From positions 17,962-81,961 of the IMG/VR virus record IMGVR_UViG_3300033121_002140: DNA of 64,000 nucleotides, one strand, 5' to 3'. The DNA is from a virus. Its lineage: Duplodnaviria > Caudoviricetes. This document shows positions 35,697 to 61,786 of this stretch, piece after piece. Under the pieces are notes generated by a model that did not search any database, was not told where the DNA came from, and saw only the letters and a program-made list of their open reading frames with translations. The translations under genes and the position numbers were made by a program. The first letter of the stretch is position 1. Every line of letters begins with the position of its first letter.

Positions 35697-35977
35697 GCCG
35701 TGACCTCCTCTTCGTCTCCAATCCTGATCACCCTGAAGGCCCAGCCCGCCGGGATCGCGAGGACGAGTGCGGCGGGATCGCGGGCCCTGAGCTCGTCCAT
35801 GACGTCCCTGAGTCCCGTCTCCATGATCTCACGTGTGGTCTGCTGCGGCTCGTATTGAAACAGCAGGACGGTGCCCACGCCGTCCGGTATCTCGAAGCGC
35901 TCGATGTTGCCACGGCGGGCGGGCAGCTCTTCCCAGGTCTCGAAGACCCGCAGGATCTTATCGTGTGAACTTTGCAT
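35693..35977 (-). CDS. Small hypothetical protein
   Basis: ORF between coupled genes. Confidence 0.5.
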   Translation of the reverse strand: MQSSHDKILRVFETWEELPARRGNIERFEIPDGVGTVLLFQYEPQQTTREIMETGLRDVMDELRARDPAALVLAIPAGWAFRVIRIGDEEEVTA

Positions 35978-36977
35978 ATCCGTTCCACGATGTGGATGCA
36001 CGAAGCGCTCGAGACAGCGTCAGCAATCCGAGTCTACCCGCGCGGTGCGCCGCGAGAACCCTGATCCAATCCATCCAATAGCCATGGAGCAGCTCCAGAG
36101 CGCCAGACGCCTCGCGGACAGTCGAAACGACGTCACGAGCGGACCTCGCGGCACGCAGCTGACACTCCAGTGCTGCCATCGTCACTGTGGGCGGATGCGT
36201 CATGATCGCAGGCATCGATTTGTCCTGCTCAATGTCGATCGGCGATGCCAGCGTTCGCTGGACCAACCGAAAATCACGCTCGTATACGTGAAGCGAGTTC
36301 GACACGTGTGTGTATGAACCCAATCCCACGGCCAGCTCGAGCGCCATGAGCTCCTGAAAGAGCGTGAAGGCAAAGACGTCGTAGGGCAACCCGATCACGA
36401 GATCGCTCGATCTCATCGAGACGATCAAGTGCAGCCTACCTTCACGTAGAAAGAACTGCAGGGCAAGCGTGCACGGCACGTCTCTTTTGGCCAACCATGA
36501 ATCGGTAGCTGACCGGATCTGGATCACAGCCCGGCGTGAATCTGGGTCACGTCGCAGCTCTTCCTTGATGTACTCCCACTGGGACTGCATGGGCCCTGCC
36601 TTGAGCTCCCACGCTGTTTCCACTTCGTGACCGTGGACCCGCGGATGCCAACGCCTGAAGATCCTTGCACCGTAGGCCGAGTTCGCGGTCTTTCCATCGT
36701 CGCTGATTCCGCGCCAAAAGGGCGCATACCAGCCGATCCAGTCGGTCTCATCGTTTCCCGTCAGGTACCAGAGCGACTCTGCGACTGCATACGACACGGA
36801 ACGGTCCGCTGCAGGCACGAATGCGAGCCTGGCTCTCGGATCTGCCAACGTGAACTTCACTGCCAGCTGTTCTTTCACCCGTTGACCACGGGGTGCGCAT
36901 TCATACGTGGGGTTCTCAAACACGCTCTTGAGCAGGTCCCAGTAGCAAGACGTGAAGCCGCTGTATGCACGTTCCAT
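35958..36977 (-). CDS. Thymidylate-synthase-fold enzyme with dCMP-type Asp (putative dCMP hydroxymethylase/methylase)
   Basis: SDDGKTANSAYG, DPDSRRAVI, catalytic DVPCT, MRSSDLVIGLPYD (Asp where ThyA has Asn), SLHVYERDF. Confidence 0.85.
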   Translation of the reverse strand: MERAYSGFTSCYWDLLKSVFENPTYECAPRGQRVKEQLAVKFTLADPRARLAFVPAADRSVSYAVAESLWYLTGNDETDWIGWYAPFWRGISDDGKTANSAYGARIFRRWHPRVHGHEVETAWELKAGPMQSQWEYIKEELRRDPDSRRAVIQIRSATDSWLAKRDVPCTLALQFFLREGRLHLIVSMRSSDLVIGLPYDVFAFTLFQELMALELAVGLGSYTHVSNSLHVYERDFRLVQRTLASPIDIEQDKSMPAIMTHPPTVTMAALECQLRAARSARDVVSTVREASGALELLHGYWMDWIRVLAAHRAGRLGLLTLSRALRASTSWNGYAKFTR

Positions 36978-36984
36978 TGCCAGA

Positions 36985-37012
36985 AGGATACCTATCAAAA
37001 AGATGGCGTACA
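36985..37012 (-). promoter_or_regulatory. sigma70-type promoter, leaderless; overlaps the divergent gene start
   Basis: TGTACG-N16-TATCCT-N7-ATG 36977. Confidence 0.55.
36988..36994 (+). promoter_or_regulatory. Putative late-promoter heptamer
   Basis: ATACCTA 8 nt before ATG 37003. Confidence 0.6.
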
Positions 37013-37722
37013 TCTACTGCATCACGAACAGGATCGATGGAAAGCGCTACGTCGGACAGACGGCCACGACATTATCCAGGCGTTGGAACGGCCACAAACA
37101 GTCTGCCAAGCGTCATACCAACGATTCACATCTTGCTCGCGCAATCCGTCTGCACGGTCATGACGCATTCATGATCGAACCGCTGCAAGAATGCCAAATC
37201 GATGAGCTCGACGAGCTCGAAAGATGGTGGATCGCGCAGTTGCGCACGCAAGATCCCAACGTCGGCTACAACCTGTCGCCAGGTGGCCTGGGGGGCAATA
37301 GAGGGCTGCGCCGCTCGGACGATGCAAGGGCTAAAATGCGTGCACGACACTGGGCACGCGACGCTAAGCGTCGAGACCAGGCGACCAGGCGGAACAGCGA
37401 ATCGCACGTGGGGATCGAGATGGATCACGAGACTCGTGCCAAGATCTCGAGGAGTCTCGCAGGCCATGTTCGCAGCGAAACAACGAGGACACGCATCGGC
37501 GAGACAAAAAAGGGCTCAAGCAACCCGATGTGGGGCAAGCCCTCCAAAAGACGTCCTGTCGTCCAGTGCACACCTGGTTGGCAGCTTATTGCAGTCCACG
37601 GATCGATCGAAGCTGCTGCGAAGGCCGCAAACGTCTCGGCACCGACCATCCGGTCCGCTTGCGCCCGGGCCGTCATTACGGCGGGATCGCGCTGGTGTTT
37701 TCTTGAGGACGACCCTGTCTAA
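37003..37722 (+). CDS. GIY-YIG homing endonuclease with NUMOD3 and NUMOD1
   Basis: YIYCITNRIDGKRYVGQT, GYNLSPGG, GSSNPMWGK, RPVVQC...SIEAAA; lower GC. Confidence 0.9.
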   Translation: MAYIYCITNRIDGKRYVGQTATTLSRRWNGHKQSAKRHTNDSHLARAIRLHGHDAFMIEPLQECQIDELDELERWWIAQLRTQDPNVGYNLSPGGLGGNRGLRRSDDARAKMRARHWARDAKRRDQATRRNSESHVGIEMDHETRAKISRSLAGHVRSETTRTRIGETKKGSSNPMWGKPSKRRPVVQCTPGWQLIAVHGSIEAAAKAANVSAPTIRSACARAVITAGSRWCFLEDDPV

Positions 37723-38684
37723 GCAACAATCGGGCGTGGGCCGCCCCAGTCGCCGCGGGCCTCGAACCACTCGCACGTCGCCTGCAGGCCTTGCCAGAGG
37801 CCCACCCTCGGCTCGTACCCAAGCACTGTCCGCGCCAGCGAGATGTCAGCGTGCGTCGTATGCACGTCTCCTACCCTGGACGGCGCCTGCACCATAGAAA
37901 GCTCGCCGTAACGTGCCCGCAGCGCCTGCAGGATCTGGTCGTTGGTGTGGGTCTCGCCGCAGGCCACGTTGAAGGCCCGGCCGTCCAGGGCATACGGATG
38001 CGCGGCGGCGAGCATGTTGGCATCGACGACGTTGTCGACATGGCACATGTCGCGGGATTGCGTGCCGTCTCCATCGCTACGCAGCGGCCGTCGACGCATC
38101 ACGGCCGTGAGCCACGCCGCGATCGCGGTCGCGTAGGGAGAGTCCCCCAGGGAACCTGGGCCGAAGACGTTGAAGTACCGCAGGCACACCGACTCGAACC
38201 CATAGAGCCGCGCGTACAGGCCCAGGTAGTCCTCCACAGTGGACTTATGCATCGCGTAGGGTGATGCAGGCCTCCTGGGAGCGTCCTCACGGGTGGGTGT
38301 GACGGCACCGGGCCCATACACGGCTGACGAGGACGAGAACACGAACCGCAGCCTGCGGCGCGCCAGGCGACATGCCTCGACCAGACGCATGGTGCGGTTG
38401 ACGTTGACCTCGAACGTGCGCTCTGGATGCTCGACAGTGTAGGAGACCCTGGGCAGTGCCGCCATGTGGAACACGACGTCGTATCGACCGCTGCGAACCC
38501 GGGCCAGCACCTCGTCCGAGGCCATGTCCTCCTCTAGAAACGACCAGCACTGTTGGGCCGGCGTCTTGTCGCAGGACGCCGTCAGGTCGTCCACCGCATC
38601 CACGGCCCAGCCCTCGCTGAGGAGCCGACGCGTCAGGTGGGACCCGATGAACCCGCAGGCGCCTGTCACGAGCGATGTCGGCAT
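37719..38684 (-). CDS. NAD-dependent UDP-sugar 4-epimerase (extended SDR, GalE/WbpP-like)
   Basis: VTGACGFIGSHL, HMAA, SSSSAVYG, YAMHK, RYFNVFGP, RDMCHVDNVV. Confidence 0.92.
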   Translation of the reverse strand: MPTSLVTGACGFIGSHLTRRLLSEGWAVDAVDDLTASCDKTPAQQCWSFLEEDMASDEVLARVRSGRYDVVFHMAALPRVSYTVEHPERTFEVNVNRTMRLVEACRLARRRLRFVFSSSSAVYGPGAVTPTREDAPRRPASPYAMHKSTVEDYLGLYARLYGFESVCLRYFNVFGPGSLGDSPYATAIAAWLTAVMRRRPLRSDGDGTQSRDMCHVDNVVDANMLAAAHPYALDGRAFNVACGETHTNDQILQALRARYGELSMVQAPSRVGDVHTTHADISLARTVLGYEPRVGLWQGLQATCEWFEARGDWGGPRPIVA

Positions 38685-38731
38685 GGCTCAAATTATCGCG
38701 CGCCATTGGCGGCTTGGGTCACGCCAGGTGG

Positions 38732-38956
38732 TCAGGCGACGCTGGTCGCATGCGCTCGGAAGAAGTCGTACGCGTCCTCGTGGGAGACCTGCGCCGCGCT
38801 CGCGATGTAGGCCACCGCATCGTCATCCCCGTAACCCCGCGCCATCGCGTCGTCCAGGGCGACCGCCATCTCGCCCTCGTCAGCGGGCGTGACGCGTTCC
38901 ATCTCTTCCCTGATCAGGTGCCGAAGTCGACGCACGGTGAGCATCATCGTCGTCAC
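38732..38956 (-). CDS. Small hypothetical protein with N-terminal tag
   Basis: MLTVRRLRHLIREEME. Confidence 0.6.
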   Translation of the reverse strand: MTTMMLTVRRLRHLIREEMERVTPADEGEMAVALDDAMARGYGDDDAVAYIASAAQVSHEDAYDFFRAHATSVA

Positions 38957-38961
38957 CTCGC

Positions 38962-39360
38962 TCAGTGCATGCTGAGCAGCGCATCCGTCAGGGGCTGCCT
39001 GTACTGCTCGGCGTCGTCGACGTCGCGCCTGCGTGACAGGTGCGTGATCACAGCTGGCACGACCTCATGCTCCAGGAAGTCCTCGTAGAGGTCGTAACCT
39101 TGGGACTCCCACTCACGCCAGGCCTCCCTGAGGCGCTGGAGCAGGTCGCCGCCCATGTAGCCCAGGTCCGTGACCTCGTCCACGATGTGCTCAGGCACGT
39201 CCGCCTGGGTCATCGCGTGGCCCACCCATTCACGAAACTCGTTCCACGTCGAAGCCTCAGGCGATGTGGGAGGCGGCTTGTTGGGAGCCTTGCCCGCCTC
39301 CACCAGGCGAGCAGCCTCTTCCTTGATGATCTGCCTGAGCCGTCCGACCGCGATGCGCAT
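38962..39360 (-). CDS. Hypothetical protein with N-terminal tag
   Basis: MRIAVGRLRQIIKEEAARLVEA. Confidence 0.7.
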   Translation of the reverse strand: MRIAVGRLRQIIKEEAARLVEAGKAPNKPPPTSPEASTWNEFREWVGHAMTQADVPEHIVDEVTDLGYMGGDLLQRLREAWREWESQGYDLYEDFLEHEVVPAVITHLSRRRDVDDAEQYRQPLTDALLSMH

Positions 39361-39365
39361 ATGGC

Positions 39366-39372
39366 TAGGTAT
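39366..39372 (-). promoter_or_regulatory. Putative late-promoter heptamer
   Basis: ATACCTA 5 nt before ATG 39360. Confidence 0.6.
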
Positions 39373-39930
39373 TCACAAGACCAGCGCGGCCCGCAGCTCC
39401 GTGATCTGACGCCCGAGGTCCTCGTCGTCCACCGTGAGCCGCGTCACCCTGCAGCCGGTCGTCTCGACGAACTCCCGGTAGAGACCGTCGATCTGCATCA
39501 GCCGCGCTGGCCCGAGCTCGTCCGGGAACCTGTCGTCCCTGATCCCGGCGTACGAGGTGCGGGTGCACAGGACCAGGTCGGCACCCAGGGCCGCGTACCT
39601 GGCGTCCGCGTGCCACACGGCCGCGTCGTCCCGAGCACGGCCCATCGCCCTCGAATACACCCACTCGCACGGATAGCCGCGGTCCTTGACCATGCTGGCG
39701 CCAGATGCCCGGAGAAACGATGCCAGGTACTCGTCGCCGTAACGGACCGTGCGTGCGAAGCGCGTCGGGTCGTCCTTGAAAGCGTCCCACTCGCGGTCGT
39801 ATTTCCAGTATGGGATCCCGACCGCCGCCGACAACCCGCGCGCGATCTCGGTCTTGCCACATCGATCTGGTCCAACCATCACGATGATGCGCTGTTCACG
39901 GTTTTCTGAAGTACTCGAACGTCCGTTCAT
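39373..39930 (-). CDS. Thymidylate-kinase-like dNMP kinase
   Basis: P-loop GPDRCGKT; DRGYPCEWVY; start uncertain. Confidence 0.8.
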   Translation of the reverse strand: MNGRSSTSENREQRIIVMVGPDRCGKTEIARGLSAAVGIPYWKYDREWDAFKDDPTRFARTVRYGDEYLASFLRASGASMVKDRGYPCEWVYSRAMGRARDDAAVWHADARYAALGADLVLCTRTSYAGIRDDRFPDELGPARLMQIDGLYREFVETTGCRVTRLTVDDEDLGRQITELRAALVL

Positions 39931-40708
39931 CCCACTTCACTCCTTCAACAGCAAGAAGCTCTTGGAACGAGAGCTTCGGAAAGTCGTCCTCGGTGACTAC
40001 CCTGAACTCCAGTCCCCGCTCTGCGCAGTACGCCCGGGCGGCTTCGAACTTCGCCATGTTCTTAGGCGTCTTCGCCAATCTGCTCGGCTTCACCTCGAAC
40101 AGCAACCCTTGCGATGGCACACCGAAGTCAGGTCGGTAGGTACCGCCCGACCAGCGAATCAGGTGTGCCTCGTAGTCTAGGTCGTGCTGCACGTCCAAAC
40201 CCATCGAGCGTTCTGCATGCAAGAGGAATGAGAGCTCGAACAAGCTACGGAAGAAGACACCCTTGTACCAGCCTTTGACGGACCGACCGCTGCGGGCATA
40301 CACTTTCCCCCACGCAGGATTGTTCTCGCCTGAGACAGCCGCCGACGTCCGCCGAGAGATGTCAGCGGCACGTTCCTCGCCATAGATCTCCGCGTTCGTC
40401 TTGCCAGTGCGGTGCTGCGTCACGCGCTGTAGACCATGCACATGGTCATGTCGACCGTGCATTGGATTCTTCTCACCGGACGTTGCCTTCGACATCGTCA
40501 GCTTGAATCGTCGCGTTCTCTCAGCACCTTCGACGGCACCGAGCTTGGCTTCAAAGCGCTCCTGCACTGATCGACCACGCTGCCACGCATTTAGGCATGA
40601 CACGCAGCAAAACCGCGGCAGCTGCTTTCGAGACGGCCACACGGTCTTGACCGCGGTCTTTCCGCACTGCGGGTTCTGACACACGAACTCGTACGCGACG
40701 GGCGACAT
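39896..40708 (-). CDS. Homing-endonuclease-like protein: Cys-rich N-terminus, NUMOD3-like repeats, TnsA-like PD-(D/E)XK domain
   Basis: CQNPQC, FCCVSC, GEKNPMHG, FRSLFE, YRPDF, FEVKP, KFEAARAYC..RGLEFRVVTE; ATACCTTA upstream. Confidence 0.78.
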   Translation of the reverse strand: MSPVAYEFVCQNPQCGKTAVKTVWPSRKQLPRFCCVSCLNAWQRGRSVQERFEAKLGAVEGAERTRRFKLTMSKATSGEKNPMHGRHDHVHGLQRVTQHRTGKTNAEIYGEERAADISRRTSAAVSGENNPAWGKVYARSGRSVKGWYKGVFFRSLFELSFLLHAERSMGLDVQHDLDYEAHLIRWSGGTYRPDFGVPSQGLLFEVKPSRLAKTPKNMAKFEAARAYCAERGLEFRVVTEDDFPKLSFQELLAVEGVKWDERTFEYFRKP

Positions 40709-40744
40709 GATCTAAGGTATTGTCAGGGCCTTGAGATGTGCGGT

Positions 40745-41326
40745 CTATCCTGCCTTCAATCGCCAGTCATCACTCCGTCTCACCATGCCGATTTTTTTCA
40801 CACGCACAGACTCCGTGGCCCACACCTCACCCGAGTCACGAGAATCAGGCACGCAGTGCTTGAACAAGGCTTGCACGGCTGGATCTGCCTTGGCGCGCGT
40901 GATGTCAGCATCGTGCTGCCTCTGCGTCCACCGTCTCGAGCTCGTGACGTAGGGCCCGAAGTATGCTGGAAAGCGAGCATTGATGAACTTGAAGACGTCG
41001 AACTGCGCGATTTTCTTCGACGCGTGGCTGGGACACCGGACGCGAGCGGGCTCGACCATGCCGGGCAGGTTGTCGACCGCGTAGACGTGGTACGCCTGTG
41101 CGAGCGTCTGCAGCCCATCGAGCGCGGCCTCGACGCTGGTCGCGAACGAGACGCGCGGCGTAAACCAGTCCTCGATGGGCATGCCTCGAAACTCGAGAGG
41201 ATGCCTGGGAACACGTGGGACCAACACGACAGAAGGTCCCAGGTCTTTTTCCGAGAGGTGATAGTAGCTCTGGTCGCTGACTGCCTCGCGGATGAGGCTC
41301 CGGAGCCAACCCATCGAAACCTGCAT
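40745..41326 (-). CDS. Putative ADP-ribosyltransferase-fold protein with N-terminal tag
   Basis: MQVSMGWLRSLIREA; YYHLS...PRVSFATSVEAAL...YHVYA...VPDSRDSGEVW. Confidence 0.55.
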   Translation of the reverse strand: MQVSMGWLRSLIREAVSDQSYYHLSEKDLGPSVVLVPRVPRHPLEFRGMPIEDWFTPRVSFATSVEAALDGLQTLAQAYHVYAVDNLPGMVEPARVRCPSHASKKIAQFDVFKFINARFPAYFGPYVTSSRRWTQRQHDADITRAKADPAVQALFKHCVPDSRDSGEVWATESVRVKKIGMVRRSDDWRLKAG

Positions 41327-41332
41327 GCCAAA

Positions 41333-41339
41333 CAAGTAT
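41333..41339 (-). promoter_or_regulatory. Putative late-promoter heptamer (variant)
   Basis: ATACTTG 6 nt before ATG 41326. Confidence 0.45.
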
Positions 41340-41344
41340 CGGTC

Positions 41345-41557
41345 TCAGGCCGAGGGCTGACACACGCACTCGAGCCCCGCGAAGGGTCCAGTCACGAGCT
41401 CGGCGATCACTCGGCCGTCGAGCGTGCGCTCGAGCTCCACCGTGTGCGCCGCCTGCGGCTCGTCCGTGTGGATCGTCAGGCGCCTGCACACATGTTCGTC
41501 ACCGCGCGCGAAGGCGGCCATCTCCTCGAGAAACTCAGCCGTGAACTCGATTTTCAT
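41345..41557 (-). CDS. Small hypothetical protein
   Basis: MKIEFTAEFLEE; ATGA coupling. Confidence 0.55.
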   Translation of the reverse strand: MKIEFTAEFLEEMAAFARGDEHVCRRLTIHTDEPQAAHTVELERTLDGRVIAELVTGPFAGLECVCQPSA

Positions 41558-41889
41558 GCCTCTCTCCTCGTCACCAGCTCGACCAGCACGTCCCCATGGC
41601 ACTCCGCGGGCTTGCACCTGCATGACAGCACGACGTCCCCCAGTGCCGGTAGGCACCCGAGGATCCACTCCCGGCGCTCGGGCTCCAGCTCCCGGTCGGA
41701 CTCACCCAGCAGCCACGACCTGTAGCGCGACACGGCCTCGGCCCTGCTGCCCACGGCGACCGCCGCCAGTGTGCCTGTCGTGTGCGAGAACGGGTTGCCA
41801 AAGTGCATGCCCACGCGGCGGCGCGTGATGTCGATCGCGCCGGGACCCGGGGCCTCCCGGTGAGAGTTGACGACCCTCGCCTGGGTCAC
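41554..41889 (-). CDS. DUF4326-family protein
   Basis: IDITR...FGNPF...AVSRYRSWL...LSCRCKPAECHGDVL. Confidence 0.85.
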   Translation of the reverse strand: MTQARVVNSHREAPGPGAIDITRRRVGMHFGNPFSHTTGTLAAVAVGSRAEAVSRYRSWLLGESDRELEPERREWILGCLPALGDVVLSCRCKPAECHGDVLVELVTRREA

Positions 41890-42170
41890 TGGGCCCCCTG
41901 CGCGTGCCTGTCGTGCTGGCGCAGGACGCCCGCCATGCTGATCATGTCTTGGCCCGTGATCTCCACGATCGTGCGCCATGCGGTCACGACCTTCCCGAAG
42001 CACACTGGGCACAGCCAGATGAACGTGAGCCCGTCGCTCACGTCGCAGATGTTGCCGAATCCGGTCTTGCGCCGGATCTCGCCCGCATCGTCTCCTCGGC
42101 TGTGCTCACATGAACGTGCGCCACAACGGCACACCAGCGTCGCCGTCTCATCACACACCGACACGGTCAT
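41886..42170 (-). CDS. Small Cys-rich hypothetical protein
   Basis: CRCG...WLCPVC. Confidence 0.55.
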   Translation of the reverse strand: MTVSVCDETATLVCRCGARSCEHSRGDDAGEIRRKTGFGNICDVSDGLTFIWLCPVCFGKVVTAWRTIVEITGQDMISMAGVLRQHDRHAQGAQ

Positions 42171-42505
42171 CCTCCGATCCTCGCACCGTCCATGACGACG
42201 AGCCCGCCTTCGGGCACGGTCGCCAAGCGATCCACCACGTCGCTCGGCTCGGCATGATCTTGCGCCGACCACGACGCCGTCGAGCGCTCCGAGTCCTCGG
42301 CGTCCCAGCGGGCCAACCGTGCCACCACCCAATCGATTCCGTGTTTTTCTCTGCGGGCGATCGCCCACGCCTCGTCGTACCGAGGGTGATCCATCGCCTT
42401 CACGCGAGCCTGCTCTTCTGCACGCTCACGCATCATGCGGTCCCAGCCGGTCTCAAAGCCCGAGTCGAAGTCGCTGCCGCCGAAGTCGTCGGGTCCCACG
42501 TTCAT
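42167..42505 (-). CDS. Hypothetical protein
   Basis: Coupled ORF. Confidence 0.55.
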   Translation of the reverse strand: MNVGPDDFGGSDFDSGFETGWDRMMRERAEEQARVKAMDHPRYDEAWAIARREKHGIDWVVARLARWDAEDSERSTASWSAQDHAEPSDVVDRLATVPEGGLVVMDGARIGG

Positions 42506-42846
42506 GACGCCGTCTCCAGGTAGGGCAAGATGTCAGTCGAATCGACGTCCCACACCATGAGGGTCTTAAAGGCACCCTCCACGTCGCCTTGGGCGTGCTG
42601 AAGGGCCTGTGGACCCTTTGGATGAGTCTCGACAGATGCCTGCATGAAGGCCGACAGCTCGGCCTCGCGCTCTGGGTCGATGGGCACCCACAGCCCAGGC
42701 GTCCTGCCGAGCGTGTGGCTCTCGAAGGCGGTTTGCTCCATCAGGGCGTCGTCCTGCATCTGCCTCAACAGCGCGGCCTGCACCCCTGGGTCCATGGGCC
42801 GGGTCGCCCGGGGCTGCGGCACGAAAGAAGGCGTGTGGACCCTCAC
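42502..42846 (-). CDS. Hypothetical protein
   Basis: Coupled ORF. Confidence 0.55.
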   Translation of the reverse strand: MRVHTPSFVPQPRATRPMDPGVQAALLRQMQDDALMEQTAFESHTLGRTPGLWVPIDPEREAELSAFMQASVETHPKGPQALQHAQGDVEGAFKTLMVWDVDSTDILPYLETAS

Positions 42847-44057
42847 GGCTCCAGCTCTTTCCGGGCCGCGGCCTCGATCATGTCGACCCGGTGCCCAGGC
42901 GAGAAGTCGGCCAACGCCCGCAGGGCACGTTCCTGCGCGGAGACCAGATGGTCGCGGTCCGCGGCCGACATGTCGGCCAGGTTTTTGACCTTCCGCACCA
43001 CATCCTCGGGACCGTTCACCAGGAGCCCGCAGCCGTCGCCCACCTCACGCATGGGCAGGCTCTCGGCGGGCACCAGGGCGGGCACGCCCGCGGCGACCGC
43101 CTCCAGGTACCGCATCGTGATGTTGCCGTGTCTCGCGTACTCGGGCTTCGTGATGTGACACACGGCCACGCTGTCGTTCAGGGTCCCGTACACGTCCCGA
43201 AACGGAAGGCGCGGCACGAAGGCTACGCCAGGATACGCCTGCAGCACCCCACGCGGGTGCTGCCGCTCGGGCGAGGGCGTGAGCCAGTTGCCGTGCACGG
43301 TCGTCTGAAGGCCCAGCCTTTCCCGGAGCTCCCGGGCAGGGCCGGCATAGTAGCGCACGAACTGGTCGTCACGCTCGTAGTTGTTGCCCACGTAGCGGTA
43401 GTGCACGGAGCCCTGGCGGGCCTTGTGGACCCTCGTAAAGTCGCTGCAGAAAGGCATGCGGACCCTGGGCCGCGTCAGCTCCCTAGGCCTGAGGCAGGGA
43501 TCGCACACGGTCACCTTGGGCCACCGACGCTCGTCCTCCTCCGACACCTTCAGGTCCGTGTCGAGGACCACGATGGGCGTGCCCATGCGGGAATAGTGGT
43601 CCAGGAGCTCGACCTGGCGGTCCCAGTCGATCGTGGGCTTGCCCACGATCCGCCACCGCCATTCGACGAAGAGCACGTCGAGCTCGGGCAAGCCAGAACC
43701 CGCGCTGGAATCATCGACCTCGATCGGATAGCTGAGGACGCACGGATCACCCGGCACGGGCGATGAGTCGATCCTGTAGTTTGGCACGGACCTGCCCTGT
43801 TCGAAGCAGGCCGCGATCATCGTGGTGCCTGCCTCACGGATCGCGGCGGGCGTGCCTGCAAACCTGTTCAAGAATGCGTACCGCGTCTTCTCCCGCCTCT
43901 GCTGCAGCTGGATGACGCTGTGCCCCCTGCGCAGGAGCTCGTCCACCATCAGATGGCGCTCGCCGCGTAGGCCATCGGGCGTCTCGACCACGTGGCTGTC
44001 GCAGGGGCGCTCGAGAAAACCCCAGAACGAAACGCCACAACGCAAAGACCGACTCAT
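42843..44057 (-). CDS. GT-B glycosyltransferase resembling T4 DNA beta-glucosyltransferase
   Basis: PIVVLDTDLK (cf. BGT YLFTDIR), YVGNNYER, HGNW, AFVPRLPFRDV, NITMRYLEAVAAGVPAL (cf. BGT FITLRVWETMAS); by-eye comparison. Confidence 0.75.
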   Translation of the reverse strand: MSRSLRCGVSFWGFLERPCDSHVVETPDGLRGERHLMVDELLRRGHSVIQLQQRREKTRYAFLNRFAGTPAAIREAGTTMIAACFEQGRSVPNYRIDSSPVPGDPCVLSYPIEVDDSSAGSGLPELDVLFVEWRWRIVGKPTIDWDRQVELLDHYSRMGTPIVVLDTDLKVSEEDERRWPKVTVCDPCLRPRELTRPRVRMPFCSDFTRVHKARQGSVHYRYVGNNYERDDQFVRYYAGPARELRERLGLQTTVHGNWLTPSPERQHPRGVLQAYPGVAFVPRLPFRDVYGTLNDSVAVCHITKPEYARHGNITMRYLEAVAAGVPALVPAESLPMREVGDGCGLLVNGPEDVVRKVKNLADMSAADRDHLVSAQERALRALADFSPGHRVDMIEAAARKELEP

Positions 44058-44464
44058 AGGGGCTCCTTATACTCAAAAGGAGCTAGCATCGACACATGGC
44101 ATGCATCTACTGCATCACCAACAAGACAAATGGAAAACGCTACGTGGGCAAAACGACAGGGTGTCCCGCAGAACGTTGGCGTGGGCACCCGGAGGCACAG
44201 CACGGCAGGCGCGGCATCGTTGTCCTGCAGCTTTCGTGCCAGGATGACGGCGGGCGAGCCGTCCTCGGCGCTGGAGGCATCTGACTGGGCACCCGGCAGC
44301 AGGCCTTCCTTGCCCAGGATGTCCACGAGCGACGCAGCGTCGTTCACGACGTGCCACAGCTCCACCATGGAGCCCGTGGGCACGAAGCGTGCCCATGTCG
44401 TTGGGTCTGTCGGATCGAGCGCCTCACTGAGAAAGGCCCTGACGAGGCAGCGCAGCTCGTACAT
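44054..44464 (-). CDS. ART-like protein with N-terminal tag; C-terminus probably replaced by a rearrangement
   Basis: MYELRCLVRAFLSEA; LWHVVNDAASLVDILGKEGLLPG; last ~40 codons are antisense to a GIY-YIG fragment. Confidence 0.5.
   Translation of the reverse strand: MYELRCLVRAFLSEALDPTDPTTWARFVPTGSMVELWHVVNDAASLVDILGKEGLLPGAQSDASSAEDGSPAVILARKLQDNDAAPAVLCLRVPTPTFCGTPCRFAHVAFSICLVGDAVDACHVSMLAPFEYKEPL
44066..44094 (-). promoter_or_regulatory. sigma70-type promoter of the glycosyltransferase
   Basis: TGTCGA-N17-TATAAG-N8-ATG. Confidence 0.5.
44096..44190 (+). pseudogene. Truncated GIY-YIG endonuclease remnant
   Basis: MACIYCITNKTNGKRYVGKTTGCPAERWRGH, then homology stops. Confidence 0.75.
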
Positions 44465-44471
44465 GCAGGGA

Positions 44472-44478
44472 TAAATAG
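44472..44478 (-). promoter_or_regulatory. Putative late-promoter heptamer
   Basis: CTATTTA 7 nt before ATG 44464. Confidence 0.55.
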
Positions 44479-44493
44479 CTCTCCGGGCGCGCG

Positions 44494-44880
44494 TCAGTCC
44501 AGATCCTGCAGCGCCTGCCGCATCGCGGTGACCACCGCTGAGTACAGCCCATCCTTCGCCTTCTGCGCAGGCGGGAGGTCGTCGTACCCCACCAGGCACG
44601 GATGCGTCTTCTTCTCGCCGTCCTTCACGGGACCGTGCGTCCAGCCGTCGCGCTGTTTCGCCGCCTTCCAGGCCTCGTACGCCGCCTTCCAGGCCTCGTA
44701 CAGCTGCCTCGGGCTCGCGCCCTGCAGTGTCACTGCGACGCTCTCGATCGAGGCCTCCCTCTGCCACTCAGGAGCCTGCTCCCAGTGTCCCTGGGAGGGA
44801 TCACCCGTCATGTCGCAAAAGACCTTGTTGACCTCGTGCGCCGCGGCGGCGCACGCTTCCTTGACCTTGTCGCTCGTCAT
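44494..44880 (-). CDS. RyR-domain phage protein
   Basis: AAAAHEVN, WEQAPEWQREAS, GWTHGPVKDGEKKTHPCLVGYDDLP..QKAKD. Confidence 0.85.
   Translation of the reverse strand: MTSDKVKEACAAAAHEVNKVFCDMTGDPSQGHWEQAPEWQREASIESVAVTLQGASPRQLYEAWKAAYEAWKAAKQRDGWTHGPVKDGEKKTHPCLVGYDDLPPAQKAKDGLYSAVVTAMRQALQDLD
44660..44701. repeat. Perfect 21-bp tandem duplication (in frame, YEAWKAA x2)
   Basis: gccgccttccaggcctcgtac repeated twice. Confidence 0.9.
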
Positions 44881-44896
44881 CGTCCGTCTCCTCTTC

Positions 44897-45103
44897 TCAG
44901 TTCACTTCGCTCTCCAGCTTTCGGAGCCTGACCTGGAGGCGGCGCATGTCGATCGACAGCTCTAGGATCTCCTGGAGGTGGTCCTCCTGCCACACTTCCC
45001 TGGCCCGATGCCGTGCCATGATGGCGGCGTCGAGATCGTCCATCCCCTCCAGCACCTTCGTGATCGAGGGACGCAGGTGCTGCTCCTCGGGCGTGTAGCT
45101 CAC
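44897..45103 (-). CDS. Small hypothetical protein
   Basis: GTGA coupling to decarboxylase stop. Confidence 0.5.
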   Translation of the reverse strand: MSYTPEEQHLRPSITKVLEGMDDLDAAIMARHRAREVWQEDHLQEILELSIDMRRLQVRLRKLESEVN

Positions 45104-46104
45104 AGGCTCAGCTCCTTTCCGAAATGCTCGATCGTCGACCGCAGCCCATCCTCGAGCGTGATCTTCGGCTCCCAGCCCAGCATCGCCTGTGCCCTGTGGA
45201 TCGAGGGTCGTCTCCTGCATGGGTCATCCACGGGCAGCGGCCTGCGCTCCACGTGGAGCGGCCAATCGCCCGTTGCCCGTGACCTCCCGACCATGGTCAG
45301 AATTGTCGACGCAAGGTCGTTGATGGTCACCTCATGCGGGTTTCCGAAGTTCATGGGTCGCCCGGCCCAGGGACCAGGCGCGGTGGTGCCCAGGGCGACC
45401 AGGCCACGCACCATGTCGTCCACATGGCACAGGCTGCGGGTCTGCAGGCCCGTGCCGTACACGGTCAGGCGCTCGCCTCGCAGTGCCTGCACGACGAAGT
45501 TGGAGACGACCCGGCCGTCATCAGGCCGCATCCTGGGCCCGTATGTGTTGAAGATCCGGGCCACCCGCACGTCCACGCCGTGACAACGCCGGTAGTCGTG
45601 ACACAAGGCCTCGGCCGCGCGCTTGCCCTCGTCATAGCATGCCCGGGGCCCGTACGGCTCCACGTTGCCTCTGTAGCTCTCCAGCTGCGGGTGCTCGAGA
45701 GGATCGCCGTAGACCTCGGAGGTGCTGGCCTGCACCATGACGGCCCCGTTGAGCCGAGCCAGGTCGAGCGCGTTCTGCGAGCCCACCACACACGTCAGCA
45801 GGGTGCCCACCGGATCACGTTGGTACGCGGGCGGGCTCGCAGGACAGGCCAGGTTCCACACGTGCGTCAGGCCACCGCCCTTGACAGAGAGGAAGTGGGC
45901 CCCGTTCCAGCCCAGGTCCTTGGGCACGCGCACGTCACCTGCCATGAAGAAGAACCTGCCCGCGTGCGGACCCGGCTCCAGGTTCTTGGTCCGACCGGTC
46001 GACAGGTCGTCGATCACGAGCACGGAGTCACCCCGCGCCAACAGGGCATCGCACAGGTGCGAGCCGATGAAGCCCGCGCCGCCCAGGACGCAGTGTCTCA
46101 GCAT
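45100..46104 (-). CDS. UDP-glucuronate decarboxylase (UDP-xylose synthase, UXS-like)
   Basis: LGGAGFIGSHL, NLACPASPPAYQRDP, ASTSEVYGDPLEHPQLESYRGNV, RACYDEGKR, RIFNTYGPRM...DGRVVSNF. Confidence 0.93.
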   Translation of the reverse strand: MLRHCVLGGAGFIGSHLCDALLARGDSVLVIDDLSTGRTKNLEPGPHAGRFFFMAGDVRVPKDLGWNGAHFLSVKGGGLTHVWNLACPASPPAYQRDPVGTLLTCVVGSQNALDLARLNGAVMVQASTSEVYGDPLEHPQLESYRGNVEPYGPRACYDEGKRAAEALCHDYRRCHGVDVRVARIFNTYGPRMRPDDGRVVSNFVVQALRGERLTVYGTGLQTRSLCHVDDMVRGLVALGTTAPGPWAGRPMNFGNPHEVTINDLASTILTMVGRSRATGDWPLHVERRPLPVDDPCRRRPSIHRAQAMLGWEPKITLEDGLRSTIEHFGKELSL

Positions 46105-46110
46105 GCGACC

Positions 46111-46139
46111 AGGGTAGCTCACCCGGCACCCGTTGTGCA
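46111..46139 (-). promoter_or_regulatory. sigma70-type promoter, leaderless
   Basis: TGCACA-N17-TACCCT-N6-ATG. Confidence 0.55.
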
Positions 46140-47375
46140 TGCGCCGGATCCGAGCAGTGCCATCACCCGCGCGCGTTCCTGCTCGAAGACGGGCGCAGGC
46201 TCGCAGTGCCAGGCGTGCCTGACGGAACCGTTGGGACCGGGCCTGGGCCTGCGTGTCACCCAGCGGCCCTGTCGACGACCCGGTTCGACCCGATCCCAGT
46301 CATAGCCGCCCTCGGCGCCCTGCAGGGCCATCAGCTCCCTGACGTCCGGGCTGGCGTCCTTCCAGACGCGACCGATCATGGCCTTGACCTCCTCGGTCGA
46401 CTTGCCGTGGAGCTCCCGGTGGGAGAACAGGGCCTGACCCGCGGCCGACACCGCGTTGCGCATCGCATCGCGCTGGCGCCACACCAGGCAGTTGAAGGCC
46501 TCGTCCGCGCAGGGCAGGCTGAAGGCCCGACCGTCGAAGCTGGCAAGCTTCGCTCGGCCGTCGAAGCACCAACCCGACATCGTGCTCACGGTCGCCGCCG
46601 CGGCCGAGGCGGAGACGCTGACCACCTTCTGCAATGCTCCTCCGAACCAGGGCTCGGCCGCGGCGGTCGACCGCGCGGGCACCAGCACCGTGACCTCGTC
46701 CGACTGGACGTAGGCCAGGGCCGCGTCCTGCACGGTCTCAGCCAGGTTCTCGGCCGCACTGTCCATGATCGCGATGAACCTGTTGTCGAAGGGCCTGTCC
46801 AGGCCGCGGGTCCACGTGTGGAACGCCTTACCGTCGACACGAACAGCGTAGGGCAGGTCCGGGTCCAGCGCGGGCCCCTGGCGCTCCTCGTAGGCCTTCA
46901 TGCGGTCATGCAGCGAGGGCCGCCGCAGCTCCAGCACCCGGAGACGCATGGTGCCCCCGTCACGGGTCGCCAGCGACTCTGTCGAGCCCGTCTCGACGAA
47001 GCCCGCCTGCCGCAGCACCGCGTGTCCACCGGTCGAAAAGGCGCGGGCGCGGCACAGCTTGGTGCCCGCGCCCCAGGCCTGGCCCAAAAACCGCCACGTG
47101 AGCTCGCCTGCCAAGCCTTGGCCACGAAGCTCAGGTGCCACCTCGATCGAGTACAGCTCCAGGACGCCCTCGTCCAATTCCTTGGCGTAGGCCGCGCCCA
47201 GGATCCGGCCATCCGATGGCCGGACCGCGACGACCGAGCGGGGCAAAGCCAGGGCCATCACGACAGCGTCATCGTCAAGCACCTCGGGCGGGTAGCACTC
47301 CGCCTGGAGCGCGTTCAGACCCCGCACGTCGTCCTGGCTGGGGGGTCTAAACCTCAGGTCACTGCGTCTCTTCAT
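46119..47375 (-). CDS. GNAT acetyltransferase fused to Thg1-family tRNA(His) guanylyltransferase
   Basis: GNAT motif A IEVAPELRGQGLA; Thg1 DRMKAYE, RVDGKAFH, YVQSDE, WFGG..QK..S, FDGR, WRQRDA.RN. Confidence 0.9.
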   Translation of the reverse strand: MKRRSDLRFRPPSQDDVRGLNALQAECYPPEVLDDDAVVMALALPRSVVAVRPSDGRILGAAYAKELDEGVLELYSIEVAPELRGQGLAGELTWRFLGQAWGAGTKLCRARAFSTGGHAVLRQAGFVETGSTESLATRDGGTMRLRVLELRRPSLHDRMKAYEERQGPALDPDLPYAVRVDGKAFHTWTRGLDRPFDNRFIAIMDSAAENLAETVQDAALAYVQSDEVTVLVPARSTAAAEPWFGGALQKVVSVSASAAAATVSTMSGWCFDGRAKLASFDGRAFSLPCADEAFNCLVWRQRDAMRNAVSAAGQALFSHRELHGKSTEEVKAMIGRVWKDASPDVRELMALQGAEGGYDWDRVEPGRRQGRWVTRRPRPGPNGSVRHAWHCEPAPVFEQERARVMALLGSGACTTGAG

Positions 47376-47391
47376 CCGTCGACTGTACGCG

Positions 47392-48138
47392 TCAGGCTGC
47401 GGGTGTGCACCCGGCGACCAGCTGCTCCCAGCGGTCGGAGACCAGCCGCGCGTACAGGCATGAGTGCAGGCCGTAGCAGCCCAGGGCGAAGCCATCGTTG
47501 CCCTCGACCAGCAGAGTCCGTCCGTCGTCGGTCACGCCGAAGTCGAGGGCGTAACCCTCGGGCCCGCGCCAGGCCCGGACCGCGGCCGCCACCACCTCGG
47601 AATCGGGAAAGACGAGGCAGTCGCCTGCGTAATGTCTCAAGCCCACGGGCGCGCCCTGGTGCACGAAGCACCTGTACTCGGAGACGAAGCACACGGGCTC
47701 CGAGCACAGCACCTCGAACTCGTCATCGAGGCTCGCGGTCACGATCAGGTCGGCGCACTTGCCGCTTGTCACGTGCCCGGTGAACGCCTTCTGGGCGCGC
47801 AGGGGCTTCACGAAGACGTGGTCGTCCGAGTCCAGACGCCGGCGCACCTCCCGCATCGTGGTCGCCCAGACGCGACGCCCGTAGAAGGGCAGCAGCTCCA
47901 CCGGTGGCATGCCACCGAAGGCGTCGGGCTGGCCAGCGCCCAGTCGCTCCAGGGCGCGACGCACGCAGCCGATGCCGCCGTGCACCAGGATGGCAGGCGT
48001 GAGCTCCAGGTCGGGCAGCTGTTCGGGCACGAAGCCCCTGACCTCGGTCCCGAACAGCCTGAGCCCCTGGACCAGCGCGAAGGAGCTCTCGTTGAGCCAA
48101 TCGTCATCCTTGCGCTGCACGTATGCAAGATCGATCAT
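47392..48138 (-). CDS. ATP-grasp protein (DUF4343/R2K-like)
   Basis: VFVKP, SEYRCFV, YALDFGV, LVEGND. Confidence 0.8.
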   Translation of the reverse strand: MIDLAYVQRKDDDWLNESSFALVQGLRLFGTEVRGFVPEQLPDLELTPAILVHGGIGCVRRALERLGAGQPDAFGGMPPVELLPFYGRRVWATTMREVRRRLDSDDHVFVKPLRAQKAFTGHVTSGKCADLIVTASLDDEFEVLCSEPVCFVSEYRCFVHQGAPVGLRHYAGDCLVFPDSEVVAAAVRAWRGPEGYALDFGVTDDGRTLLVEGNDGFALGCYGLHSCLYARLVSDRWEQLVAGCTPAA

Positions 48139-48451: not shown

Positions 48452-51400
48452 TCACCCTAAGTTCCTCAGCTGCGAGATCCGGGTCGACATGCCGAAGTCG
48501 TTGCGCTCCACCTCGGCCAGATAGGGCGCGTTGCGCTCCAGCGTCACGTCGGGTCCGGCACCCCACACGTTGATCCGATGGGTCGTGCCCGAGGCACCCA
48601 CGGCGAACAGCATCTGGTACGGCCTGCCGTTCTTCTTCGTGACCAGGTGCTTCGAGTCCTGCAGCACGAACCACGCGATCCGCTTCTGGCCCTGGACCAG
48701 TTCGTCCACGCTGGGCACGCCCCGGGCCGCGAGCCGCGCCTGGACCTCGGGCTCCAGGATGAAGTCGACGTTGACGTCACCCACGAGGTCCCGATGGAAC
48801 GCGGCACGTTCCAGGTTGCTCCACTCCGACGTCACCTCGTCGTCGTCCAGGTGCAGGGCCAGGCCTTTCAGGGCGTGCCTGCCGTCCTTCTTTCTGAGCC
48901 TCTCCGCGTTCTCGACCAGCACGAAATGCATGTGGCGCCAGGACCTGAACCGGGTCCGGCCGGGAGGCTCGCCCTCGGGCGCGGGCCCGATGATCCCCAT
49001 GGACTCGAAGGCGCCCACCTTGATCAGGCCCTCCAGGGCCTTCTTGTTGAACTTGGAATGGCGCCAGGCGCCATCGGCGTCCCAGCACAGGTCCTCGACA
49101 TCCCGGTAGGGCCTGTTGACCGTGATCTCGTCCACCGCGCTCTGACCCAGTCCCTTGACGCTGAGAAGGGGTGGGATGAAGGTGCGCCCATCTGGGCCGA
49201 TGACCCAGCGGTCGGTGGAGTAGTTGACGTCCACCTTGCCGATGCCATAGCCGAAGGACCGCACTGTCGCAATCGCGGCGCCGCGTGAGTCCGCGTTGCC
49301 CATCTGCGACTCCATGTAGGAGCACAGCCACTCGGCTTCGTGGTAGGTCTCGAGGTAGGCGCACATGAAGGAGTCGATCGCGTACGAATACGAGTGAGAA
49401 GCATTGAAAGCGTACGAGGCGAAGCCCGCGAGAACCTCGAACAGGGCCTGCGCCTTCTCCAGGGCAAGGCCGTTGCGCACGGCACCCTCGATGAAGGTCT
49501 CCTCGAGCACAACGATCTCGCCCTTGTTCTTGGCGTTGCCTGAGACGCTGCGCTTCACGATCGCCTTGCGCAGCCTGTCGCAGTCGACCATCGACATGCC
49601 CGCCAGCTTGTTGCCGAGCGCCATCAGCTGTTCCTGAAACACGACAGTGCCGTGCGTAAAACCCAACACCTCCTTGATGGCAGGATGGTCATACACGACG
49701 CTGCCTGGGTCCTTCTTGGCCTTCAGGTATTGGGCGTCGAACTTCGCGGCAAGCGGTCCAGGCCTATACAACGCTGTTGCCACCGCGATGTCGTCCAGGG
49801 ACCTGGGCTCGAACTGCCTGATGAAGCGCTGGGCGCCGGGGGACGTGAACTGAAAGATGCCTGCCCAACGCCCGGCGTGGTACACATGCTCGTACACGCG
49901 CTGGTCTGTGAAGTCGATGCGGTCAGGGTGCAGGTGCGCGTCGTACCACGACTTCGTCTCGGCCCAGGTGGGATGCTGCCCGGTCTGCCTGAACAGGATG
50001 AGCTCGATGCAGCGCCTGATGATGCGCAGGGTGTCGAGCCCCAGCAGGTCGAACTTGACGAAGCCATAGTCGCCCAGGTGCTTGTAGTTGAGCCCCTCGA
50101 CCCAGGGGGTCTGCGGCCCGTTCTTGGTGGCGATGACAGGCATCTTGCCGTCGATGTCGTCCGCGATGATGACGCCCGACGCATGGCAGCCCAGGGCCTT
50201 GTTCTGCTTGTACAGCACCTTGATGCGACCTGCCACCTCCGGGTACTTGGCCATGAAGTCCCTGAAGCGCTGCGAGTGCTGCATGCAGTCGTCGTACCGC
50301 AGCTCGAACAGGGACTTGTTCTCGCCCGCGTCGATGACGTGCGGCTTGACTTCGGCCTCGACCACGCTGGTCAGCGCGTTCACCTCGTCGAACGGGATGC
50401 CGTACAGCCGACCCATGTCCTTGAGCAGGGACTTGAGCTTGAAGGTGTTGAAATTGGTGATGGGCAGCACCGAATCACGCCCGAAGCGCTCGCGCAGGTC
50501 GGCGACCAGCCGGTCGCAGTCCTCGAAGTCGCTGTCGATGTCAGGCATCTCGGCCCGAGCCGGGTTCAGGAAGCGCTCGAAGTAGAGCCCGCCTGGTGGA
50601 CCGAACCTGATCGGATCCACAGACGTGATGCCCAGCACGTAGTTGATGAGCGATCCGGCCGCTGACCCACGTCCGCAGCCGATGAGCTGCGTCCTTTCGG
50701 CGATCTCCGTGATGATGCGCTGGGTCACGAAGTAGAGCGAGAAGTCCTTGCCCTTTTCCTTGTGGATCTGCCGCAGCACCGAGAGCTCGTACTTGAGGCG
50801 CTGCACGTAGGCGGGCCTCATGTGGAGGCCCATGCGCACCATGCCGTCCTTGCACATCTCCACCAGCATCTGCATGGGCGTGCGGCCCGGCTGCACCAGG
50901 CTCTCGGGCAGCTTGATGCCCACGTCGGGCTCCACGTCGCCCACCATGTCGTGGGCGATGTTCCAGGTGCCCTCGATCGCCGCGCGCACGAGAGCGTCGT
51001 CGTAGAAGCCCCAGCCCGCGCAGTGCTTCCGGTACGCGTCCCACATCTGGCCCGCGTTCTTCGGGTACAGCTCGCACTTGAGCTGCTCGGGCGACCTGGG
51101 CAGCACGGACGGGTCGATCTGGTCGTAGTTGAGCCGGCCCAGCATCTTGTAGATCTCACGCTCGGCCCAGAACTCAGGACGACAGTAGTGGGAGTCGGCA
51201 GCCGCCGACAGCCGCACCCCGTGCCGCTTGTGCATCTCGAGCAGGACCCTGTTGACCAGGTGCTGCTGCGGCAGCGCGTTGAACTGGAGCTCGGCGAAGA
51301 CGCGTCCCGGGCCCACCGCGTCCGCGAGCTGGTCGTACGTGTTCATGGCCCGGGCCAGGGCGGGGCCCATCCGGGCCTCGTCCTTGAGCACGGCCGCGGT

Positions 51401-61374: not shown

Positions 61375-61380
61375 GAGGGC

Positions 61381-61409
61381 ATCATACCACGCCGCTGCGT
61401 GCGCCGACA
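61381..61409 (-). promoter_or_regulatory. sigma70-type promoter, leaderless
   Basis: TGTCGG-N17-TATGAT-N6-ATG. Confidence 0.7.
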
Positions 61410-61416
61410 TGCCCGC

Positions 61417-61773: not shown

Positions 61774-61778
61774 GTCGT

Positions 61779-61785
61779 TAGGTAT
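61779..61785 (-). promoter_or_regulatory. Putative late-promoter heptamer
   Basis: ATACCTA 5 nt before ATG 61773. Confidence 0.6.
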
Positions 61786-61786
61786 G

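Follow-up and report, generated by a model that had tools for sequence, protein, structure and literature searches.

A predicted pathway to glycosylated 5-hydroxymethylcytosine DNA that includes a putative UDP-glucuronate decarboxylase in an uncultured phage

In the classic case of phage T4, a modified cytosine is made before replication and is glycosylated after it. Sugar hypermodifications of DNA govern which restriction, CRISPR and type IV defences cut a phage, and such systems have supplied useful enzymes, for example T4 beta-glucosyltransferase (BGT) for the mapping of 5-hydroxymethylcytosine (5hmC). We describe here a candidate system of this kind in a stretch of 64,000 nucleotides (hereafter the window), which is the final 64 kb of the 81,961-bp IMG/VR virus record IMGVR_UViG_3300033121_002140 and has a GC content of 66%. 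An initial annotation of the window had proposed that a block of about 10 kb directs the addition of xylose or L-arabinose to 5hmC, the pentose being supplied by a UDP-glucuronate decarboxylase (UDP-xylose synthase, UXS).

Related systems have been described. The phages RB69, DLP3 and HY126 contain arabinosyl-5-hydroxycytosine DNA (PMC13326640). According to Gu et al. (2011; cited in PMC6024577), Uxs and Uxe of Sinorhizobium meliloti give UDP-xylose and UDP-L-arabinose, and Thomas et al. (2018) hypothesised this route as one possible origin of UDP-arabinose for RB69, for which phage-encoded enzymes would be needed (PMC6024577). RB69 proved to use another route (PMC13326640). The Shewanella phage Thanatos carries a putatively xylose-type pentose on cytosine, with the donor made via a UDP-xylose pyrophosphorylase (PMC12838424). 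In metagenomes, Pyle et al. reported neighbourhoods of a GT-B glycosyltransferase and ThyS with 'epimerase' genes (10.1101/2023.12.21.572611). A UXS-fed DNA sugar was not described in the literature that we searched in full text, where only the Thanatos and RB69 papers surfaced. The statement of the initial annotation that no such route was known to it holds in so far as no describing paper was found; the hypothesis itself is earlier, being that of Thomas et al. (2018; PMC6024577).

Five enzyme genes, all on the minus strand, were confirmed by Pfam, PDB and fold matches at the place where they had been annotated. They are listed here with two further genes on which the proposed pathway draws.

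35958 to 36977, minus strand: MilA-like homolog of thymidylate synthase (TS), predicted dCMP hydroxymethylase (Pfam, PDB match to MilA, active-site motifs)
37719 to 38684, minus strand: GalE-like NDP-sugar 4-epimerase (Pfam Epimerase, 4e-54); candidate substrate pairs or substrates UDP-Xyl/L-Ara, UDP-Glc/Gal, UDP-GlcNAc and UDP-GlcA
39373 to 39930, minus strand: P-loop nucleotide kinase, predicted 5hm-dCMP kinase analogous to T4 gp1 (AAA_28, model fold)
42843 to 44057, minus strand: GT-B glycosyltransferase (GT) of an unnamed family, predicted 5hmC-DNA glycosyltransferase (PF13524 in the C-terminal part, model fold)
45100 to 46140, minus strand: predicted UXS (match to human UXS1, catalytic motifs)
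48452 to 52045, minus strand: DnaE-type DNA polymerase III alpha (Pfam annotation in relatives; constant neighbour of the module)
63746 to 64000, minus strand: dUTPase_2-like all-alpha NTP pyrophosphatase, C-terminal 84 aa, candidate dCTPase (cut by the contig end)

In the pathway that we propose, the all-alpha NTP pyrophosphatase would convert dCTP to dCMP, and the MilA-like TS homolog would convert dCMP to 5hm-dCMP. The P-loop kinase would then give 5hm-dCDP, from which a host NDP kinase would make the triphosphate to be incorporated by the phage DnaE. UXS would convert host UDP-glucuronate to UDP-xylose, and the GalE-like epimerase may give UDP-L-arabinose. After replication, the GT would place the sugar on the hydroxymethyl group of 5hmC in DNA, which would shield it from host nucleases. 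The basis for assigning every catalytic step is homology, the residue signatures, the predicted folds and the linkage of the genes. That the locus encodes a T4-type cytosine replacement leading to glycosyl-5hmC DNA is, in our judgement, probable; the T4-like route to 5hmC DNA that had been put forward is, like a dedicated DNA-type GT, supported by both the residue signatures and the conserved gene linkage. Whether the attached sugar is a UXS-derived pentose appears to us evenly balanced. The full proposal, to which we give a probability of roughly 0.4, is that uncultured large phages with DnaE, together with smaller relatives, use one GT-B family on 5hmC and that swappable supply cassettes set the sugar, which would here give xylosyl- or L-arabinosyl-5hmC.

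The TS homolog, the only one in the 82-kb record, probably starts 12 codons inside a 351-aa open reading frame (ORF). It matches Pfam Thymidylat_synt with an E-value of 1.7e-21. Among solved structures, the CMP hydroxymethylase MilA, which serves in mildiomycin synthesis, is by far its nearest relative (1e-47, versus 1e-15 for true thymidylate synthases). In ThyA numbering, the motif DVPCT holds the Cys nucleophile (C146) together with L143D; RSSD retains S167 and D169, where MilA has RAND; and DSRR holds R126, where MilA has DSKR. In the motif GLPYD, an Asp stands at the ThyA N177 position (codon 36378-36380), so that the thymidylate-synthase-fold enzyme with a dCMP-type Asp, as first annotated, was confirmed. 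With the change N177D, ThyA uses dCMP in place of dUMP, and an acidic residue at L143 accompanies hydroxymethyl rather than methyl products (PMC13326640). D169N, which marks the flavin-dependent 5-hydroxy-dCMP synthases of RB69, DLP3, Thanatos and RL38J1 (PMC13326640), is absent from the window enzyme. MilA favours CMP, having Ala and Lys in place of ThyA Ser167 and Arg126', and the double change A176S/K133R flips its preference to dCMP (PMC5175136). The residue signature of the window enzyme is that of a predicted dCMP hydroxymethylase, and of neither a CMP enzyme nor a 5-hydroxycytosine (5hoC) synthase, because the Cys nucleophile, Asp143, Ser167, Asp169, Asp177 and Arg126 are all present.

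A separate observation concerns the DNA around this gene. In a near-identical relative (L001), the flanking DNA is 95-98% identical to that of the window on both sides of the TS region (35958-37718 in the window, 14831-16168 in L001). In the TS gene, identity falls to about 72% for DNA and 61% for protein, the GC content at third codon positions (GC3) is lower (0.68 against about 0.85), and about 0.7 kb between the TS and epimerase genes, with a 113-aa ORF, is found in the window and not in L001. The region looks like a hydroxymethylase allele or cassette swapped between near-identical phages.

Comparative linkage is the strongest evidence for a DNA role of the system. We fetched 72 IMG/VR loci with a relative of the GT, of which 49 had distinct GT sequences, and searched them with the window proteins. 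A TS homolog was located within 10 kb of the GT in 43 of the 49 distinct loci, with a median gap of 1.15 kb, and three of the six exceptions are truncated loci. The kinase is adjacent to the GT in 37 of the distinct loci, and DnaE orthologs (44-94% identical) stand beside it in 44. When the 72 TS homologs of the GT loci were aligned, one was found to be cut off before the motifs; in all of the 71 readable sequences the N177 position is occupied by Asp and Asp169 is retained, while position L143 is Asp in 69 and Asn in two. The GT-TS pair persists down to 22-25% GT identity, on contigs of 40-60 kb that carry GT, TS and DnaE without sugar genes. As a control, a TS homolog was present in 2 of the best 80 IMG/VR loci chosen for UXS; one of these two belongs to the same phage clade, and the other is a contig of the test set sampled again (L048). 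In relatives whose GTs are 52-82% identical to that of the window, on contigs that reach 294 kb, those of 247 and 294 kb among them, the order DnaE, UXS, GT, kinase, epimerase, TS and thymidine kinase (TK) is syntenic. The clustering is not due to chance, the block being syntenic in relatives and the GT-TS linkage being kept across deep divergence. The co-occurrence across phage genomes that the initial annotation had named as a check held for the GT and the Asp-type TS homolog. For the sugar genes the outcome was divided: the epimerase is near-constant, and UXS is patchy, occurring in about 8 of some 50 GT loci.

In one clade of four loci (L052, L054, L056 and L079), with GTs 25-28% identical to that of the window, DnaE, kinase, GT and dCMP deaminase genes are found, and no TS homolog lies within 10 kb of the GT. 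In these phages either the hydroxymethylase is encoded elsewhere or the acceptor base is made differently.

The GT was examined by sequence and by a structural model. A Pfam scan at E 0.01 gave a C-terminal match to PF13524 only, and no match to the T4 BGT family. The model, with a predicted local distance difference test (pLDDT) score of 85.5, has a GT-B fold, which aligns with T4 BGT (1c3j) over 299 residues (Z 21.6, rmsd 3.8) and with the T4 alpha-glucosyltransferase AGT (1y6f; Z 20.9). The description of this protein as T4 BGT-like is thus correct at the level of the fold and does not extend to family membership. By its sequence, the GT belongs to a separate, unnamed GT-B family seen in metagenomes only. 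In a profile search of 1.84 billion representatives, this family comprised 436 clusters at 50% identity with E <= 0.001, and 124 clusters with E <= 1e-30. The acceptor predicted for it, from the GT-TS linkage only, is 5hmC in duplex DNA. About 40 extra residues in a variable loop (43707-43891, residues about 60-120) also set the GT of the window apart from all the rest of the family, L001 included; the pLDDT is below 50 at residues 66-110.

The kinase was recognised by sequence from its P-loop and a borderline AAA_28 match (8e-6) only. Since a sequence search against solved structures gave P-loop noise only, a fold search was needed. The model (pLDDT 91) has thymidylate and deoxynucleoside kinases as its best folds (Z 14-15.4), and the dNMP kinase of the initial annotation was thereby borne out as a P-loop nucleoside-monophosphate kinase fold. 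Its predicted role on 5hm-dCMP is drawn from its constant position beside the GT and the TS homolog. Orthologs of the dUTPase_2-like fragment at 63746-64000 were found in more than 30 related loci, 40-50% identical and usually just upstream of DnaE; they score 21-25 bits, some past the Pfam cut-off. A dCMP deaminase was not found in the 82-kb record, which at about 24% completeness is uninformative on this point; dCMP deaminase and thymidine kinase are present in the loci of relatives.

The window protein encoded at 45100-46140 matches human UXS1 with 7e-87 and 295 bits, and the next solved family reaches about 111 bits. It is thus nearer to characterised UXS enzymes than to ArnA, UAXS, RmlB and GalE (at most 111 bits). 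Aligned to human UXS1, it conserves the motifs GGAGFIGSH, STSEVYG, YDEGKR, ARIFNTYGPRM and QTRS, and it shows the features of an extended short-chain dehydrogenase/reductase (SDR), namely GxxGxxG, the Thr/Glu pair (STSE), YxxxK (YDEGK) and the Arg of QTR. Its identity to the UXS enzymes of rhizobia is 52-55%, with 53% for the copy on S. meliloti pSymB. From these matches we take the window SDR to be a genuine UXS in its predicted activity. The identity given in the initial annotation therefore stands; the end that it gave, 46104, falls 36 nt inside the gene. In the window and in four related loci (L001-L004), the UXS gene lies in the same strand-run as the GT, three small ORFs (about 1 kb) upstream of it. 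UDP-glucose dehydrogenase was found neither in four related IMG/VR records nor in the 82-kb record, a fragment of about 24% completeness for which the result is uninformative; UDP-glucuronate would therefore come from the host.

The genes for sugar supply vary among the relatives. UXS with the epimerase is found in the window and in L001-L004, and the largest clade (about 18 loci) has a UDP-galactopyranose mutase and the epimerase without UXS. Other variants have the epimerase alone, the epimerase with another SDR, or, in small phages, none of these genes. One locus (L042) combines UXS, an FAD oxidoreductase, a short SDR and the epimerase. In another, of low GC content (L047, 7388-12975), the genes for UXS, a GLF-family mutase, kinase, GT, epimerase and TS homolog stand in line, and would on paper provide a coherent route from UDP-glucuronate to UDP-L-arabinofuranose. 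UXS recurs in the module in phages of 38-66% GC, at varying positions. This recurrence, together with the position about 1 kb upstream of the sole GT, points to UDP-xylose or a derivative as the donor. In a quick tree of the GTs the UXS-linked members fall in two or three places, with kin sharing labels; neither co-evolution nor a count of acquisitions is claimed from it. L-Arabinose is the pentose counterpart of galactose, and a GT lineage that occurs beside a galactopyranose-mutase gene could therefore plausibly accept UDP-L-arabinose. Of the earlier claim of xylose or L-arabinose on 5hmC, the presence of a genuine UXS in the module is upheld, and xylose and L-arabinose stand as candidate sugars.

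Five more contigs of the clade (L082, L112, L114, L118 and L148) have UXS just upstream of DnaE, with an unrelated protein of 434-484 aa or no recognised GT. In three of them the slot after the kinase is occupied by this conserved protein (L148, 16041-17363; L082, 17273-18727; L112, 19518-20822), which is 62% identical between two of the three. No Pfam family matches this protein, and by profile comparison it shows no similarity to the GT family of the window. A short GT-B-like motif seen by eye suggests that it may be a different transferase.

A cluster of relevant genes was also noticed in a cultured phage of Pseudomonas syringae, QdP_Psa3 (PV055685.1, 2691-11540). Its TS homolog has Asn at N177 and Asp at L143, which is the signature of a uracil-type hydroxymethylase, and with it are genes for a UXS homolog (46% identical), a UDP-glucose dehydrogenase, an AAA_28/dNK kinase and a YfbR-like deoxynucleotidase. 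The ORFs that were scanned included none recognisable as a GT. A UXS-fed modification of 5-hydroxymethyluracil is possible in this phage.

A number of findings weigh against the proposal that the window phage makes xylosyl- or L-arabinosyl-5hmC. The fold of the GT is tied with ordinary GT4 enzymes (Z 22; BshA, Z 22.2, and PimA), and when the GT and two remote members of its family were compared by tblastn with 50,697 phage records, neither a match nor a cultured representative was found. Only one GT is recognisable in the cluster, so that UXS and the epimerase could feed different acceptors. The absence of UDP-glucose dehydrogenase mentioned above belongs here as well. The fragment annotated as dCTPase/dUTPase-like has the module-linked orthologs described, but its own match to PF08761 is that of a truncated, 84-aa piece and lies under the threshold (E 0.0014, 19.4 bits versus a cut-off of 22.9). 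Among the best 80 UXS genes of viral contigs, 74 adjoin neither a TS homolog nor a GT of the window family. A general tie of viral-contig UXS to TS or GT was thereby ruled out, the gene being in the module in 6 of the 80 loci; since most of these genes stand in unrelated contexts, UXS alone is not diagnostic. The epimerase has the GxxGxxG, SSS and YxxxK motifs of a GalE-type SDR with a catalytic Ser, yet scores 156 bits on TIGR01179 galE, under the cut-off of 262. Its best PDB matches are capsular, WbgU, WbpP and GalE epimerases, and tblastn against plasmids found generic SDR annotations only. Its identity to the GalE-type gene behind UXS on S. meliloti pSymB is 33%; that gene, with 425 bits on TIGR01179 a canonical GalE, is taken by us to be Uxe, the record carrying no such annotation; orthology of the two epimerases is thus unsupported. 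Its orthologs occur in nearly all variants of the module, including the loci with UDP-galactopyranose mutase and no UXS, and one locus (L048) has UXS and a GT of the window family without the epimerase. Because the gene occurs with the mutase and without UXS, its ancestral substrate was probably a hexose or N-acetylhexosamine. Of the annotation as a UDP-sugar 4-epimerase of the pentose route, the GalE-like SDR therefore stands; a role on UDP-xylose is not specifically supported, as the epimerase is a core gene with or without UXS.

These facts bear on a second explanation, in which 5hmC carries a hexose (galactose, glucose or N-acetylhexosamine) derived from host UDP-Glc or UDP-GlcNAc via the core epimerase, and UXS serves another purpose, feeding a second, unrecognised transferase or draining or redirecting host UDP-glucuronate, a precursor of capsule, exopolysaccharide or lipopolysaccharide, while the phage takes over the cell. 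The core status of the epimerase, the 33% identity and its solved relatives, which act on UDP-GlcNAc, UDP-Glc or UDP-GlcA, keep this a serious rival, as do the scarcity of UXS relative to the near-constant epimerase, the composition of the largest clade, the frequent location of UXS upstream of DnaE, several genes from the GT, and the many viral UXS genes unrelated to DNA modification. It is set against the location of UXS in the GT strand-run of the window and L001-L004, its entry into the same module in several divergent phages, the lack of a second detectable GT in the cluster, and the L047 locus, where UXS, epimerase and mutase are joined beside the GT. On balance we consider the hexose explanation unlikely, though less so than the two that follow. 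The GT and sugar enzymes might glycosylate virion proteins, a polymer of the host surface, a small molecule or some further target instead of DNA, while the TS homolog and kinase independently make plain 5hmC. GT-B enzymes of this fold serve many acceptors, glycosylation of phage capsids is known (a work cited in PMC12619734), and about 65% of phage GT contigs lack a neighbouring base-modification enzyme (Pyle et al., 10.1101/2023.12.21.572611). The close pairing of GT and TS homolog in the loci examined here speaks against it, as does the position of the GT in a block of replication and nucleotide-metabolism genes rather than among structural genes, a position that it keeps even in the small phages lacking sugar genes; the GT family is, moreover, small and was not found in the phage isolate collection. 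We regard this explanation as improbable. Still less credence is given to the possibility that the TS homolog yields another C5 base, either 5-hydroxy-dCMP as in RB69 and DLP3 or 5-methyl-dCMP, with the sugar on that base or none on DNA. Unexpected flavin-dependent hydroxylation by TS homologs has recently been shown (PMC13326640), and the number of tested enzymes behind the residue rules is limited. All of the 5hoC synthases tested, however, have Asn at position 169, where the window and all readable homologs keep Asp; Asp at L143 fits hydroxymethylation over methylation, MilA, the nearest solved enzyme, is a hydroxymethylase, and the arabinose-5-phosphate isomerase, kinase-pyrophosphorylase and HAD genes of the RB69 route are not in the cluster.

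The remaining genes of the block and its surroundings are described here. From the CheckV completeness of the 82-kb record, about 24%, the source phage would be roughly 300 kb in size. Judging from codon-position GC, nearly all genes of the window are on the minus strand. Read from high to low coordinates, the order is DnaE, R2K ATP-grasp, a GNAT-Thg1 fusion, UXS, three small ORFs, GT, four small ORFs (one of them DUF4326), the homing endonuclease insert, kinase, two small ORFs, epimerase, the 113-aa ORF and the TS homolog. A megablast search of the 10-kb block against the 50,697 phage records gave zero matches. Eight small ORFs of the block have no Pfam match, and a search of PHROGs with the GT, the kinase and the small ORFs was without result. 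The features outside the assigned pathway are as follows.

37126 to 37467, minus strand: 113-aa ORF without Pfam or PHROG match, in the 0.7-kb stretch missing from L001
38732 to 39360, minus strand: two small ORFs of 74 and 132 aa without Pfam match, conserved only in L001
39896 to 40708, minus strand: NUMOD3 / TnsA-like homing endonuclease (Pfam) with low GC3, an insertion outside the pathway
41554 to 42012, minus strand: DUF4326 protein (Pfam, 2.6e-14), kept in L001, L002 and L004
44494 to 44880, minus strand: RyR-domain protein (phrog_5154; Pfam/PHROG), outside the assigned pathway

The homing endonuclease lies in a 1.45-kb insertion (39894-41344) that is missing from the otherwise 95-98% identical L001. 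The insertion also holds a 196-aa ORF, and both genes have a low GC3. A similar endonuclease is present in the same module of L114 (18767-19714). The GNAT-Thg1 fusion is located between UXS and DnaE (46119-47495), and a PNKP-type kinase/phosphatase and an RlaP nucleotidyltransferase lie within 59407-62854. These three genes form an RNA-repair-like set with no relation to the sugar pathway.

If the pentose proposal is true, xylosyl- or L-arabinosyl-5-hydroxymethylcytosine would be a base not yet reported, and the UDP-glucuronate decarboxylase route, put forward in 2018 as a hypothesis for RB69, would be found in a phage for the first time. The locus would add a donor route that leads from UDP-GlcA to UDP-Xyl and perhaps further to UDP-L-Ara; a new modified base would probably come with it. 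The compact GT family, with a predicted dCMP hydroxymethylase as its constant partner, could be a source of 5hmC-directed transferases, possibly of varied sugar specificities. The swappable supply genes suggest that DNA glycans diversify fast under pressure from modification-dependent nucleases.

Compared with described systems, the base chemistry and the logic of the proposed pathway are known; the donor route and the transferase family, and probably the final base as well, have yet to be described. By text search, the study of Pyle et al. (10.1101/2023.12.21.572611) contains no mention of xylose, pentose or decarboxylase, and neither the GT family of the window nor its cassettes are described there. 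The T-even system, with the gp56 dCTPase, gp42 hydroxymethylase, gp1 kinase and alpha- and beta-glucosyltransferases, has the same logic and the same enzyme classes as the window, and the dCMP deaminase and TK near the module in relatives of the window add to the likeness. The window differs in that its predicted hydroxymethylase, of about 340 aa and extended at the C-terminus, resembles MilA rather than gp42, its GT is in a separate sequence family and its replicase is DnaE-type; whereas the T-even phages draw on host UDP-glucose, the window phage encodes UXS and an epimerase. In RB69, DLP3 and HY126, as in the window, genes for a TS homolog, kinase, GT and pentose-nucleotide synthesis are clustered; a pentose is placed at cytosine C5, as is proposed for the window. 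Their base, however, is 5hoC, the product of a flavin-dependent TS homolog with D169N, where the window enzyme keeps Asp169, and their UDP-arabinofuranose comes from ribulose-5-phosphate through an isomerase, a kinase/pyrophosphorylase and a phosphatase, where the supply enzyme of the window is UXS. The S. meliloti Uxs/Uxe pathway resembles the window in having UXS followed by a 4-epimerase, with UXS enzymes that are 53% identical, but it is a cellular pathway for surface glycans, and its gene after UXS is a canonical GalE distant from the window epimerase. Thanatos likewise encodes its own sugar activation, and its cytosine carries a pentose, as is proposed for the window; its donor is made by the pyrophosphorylase route and it has a 5hoC-type TS homolog (PMC13326640), in contrast to the UXS and the predicted dCMP hydroxymethylase of the window.

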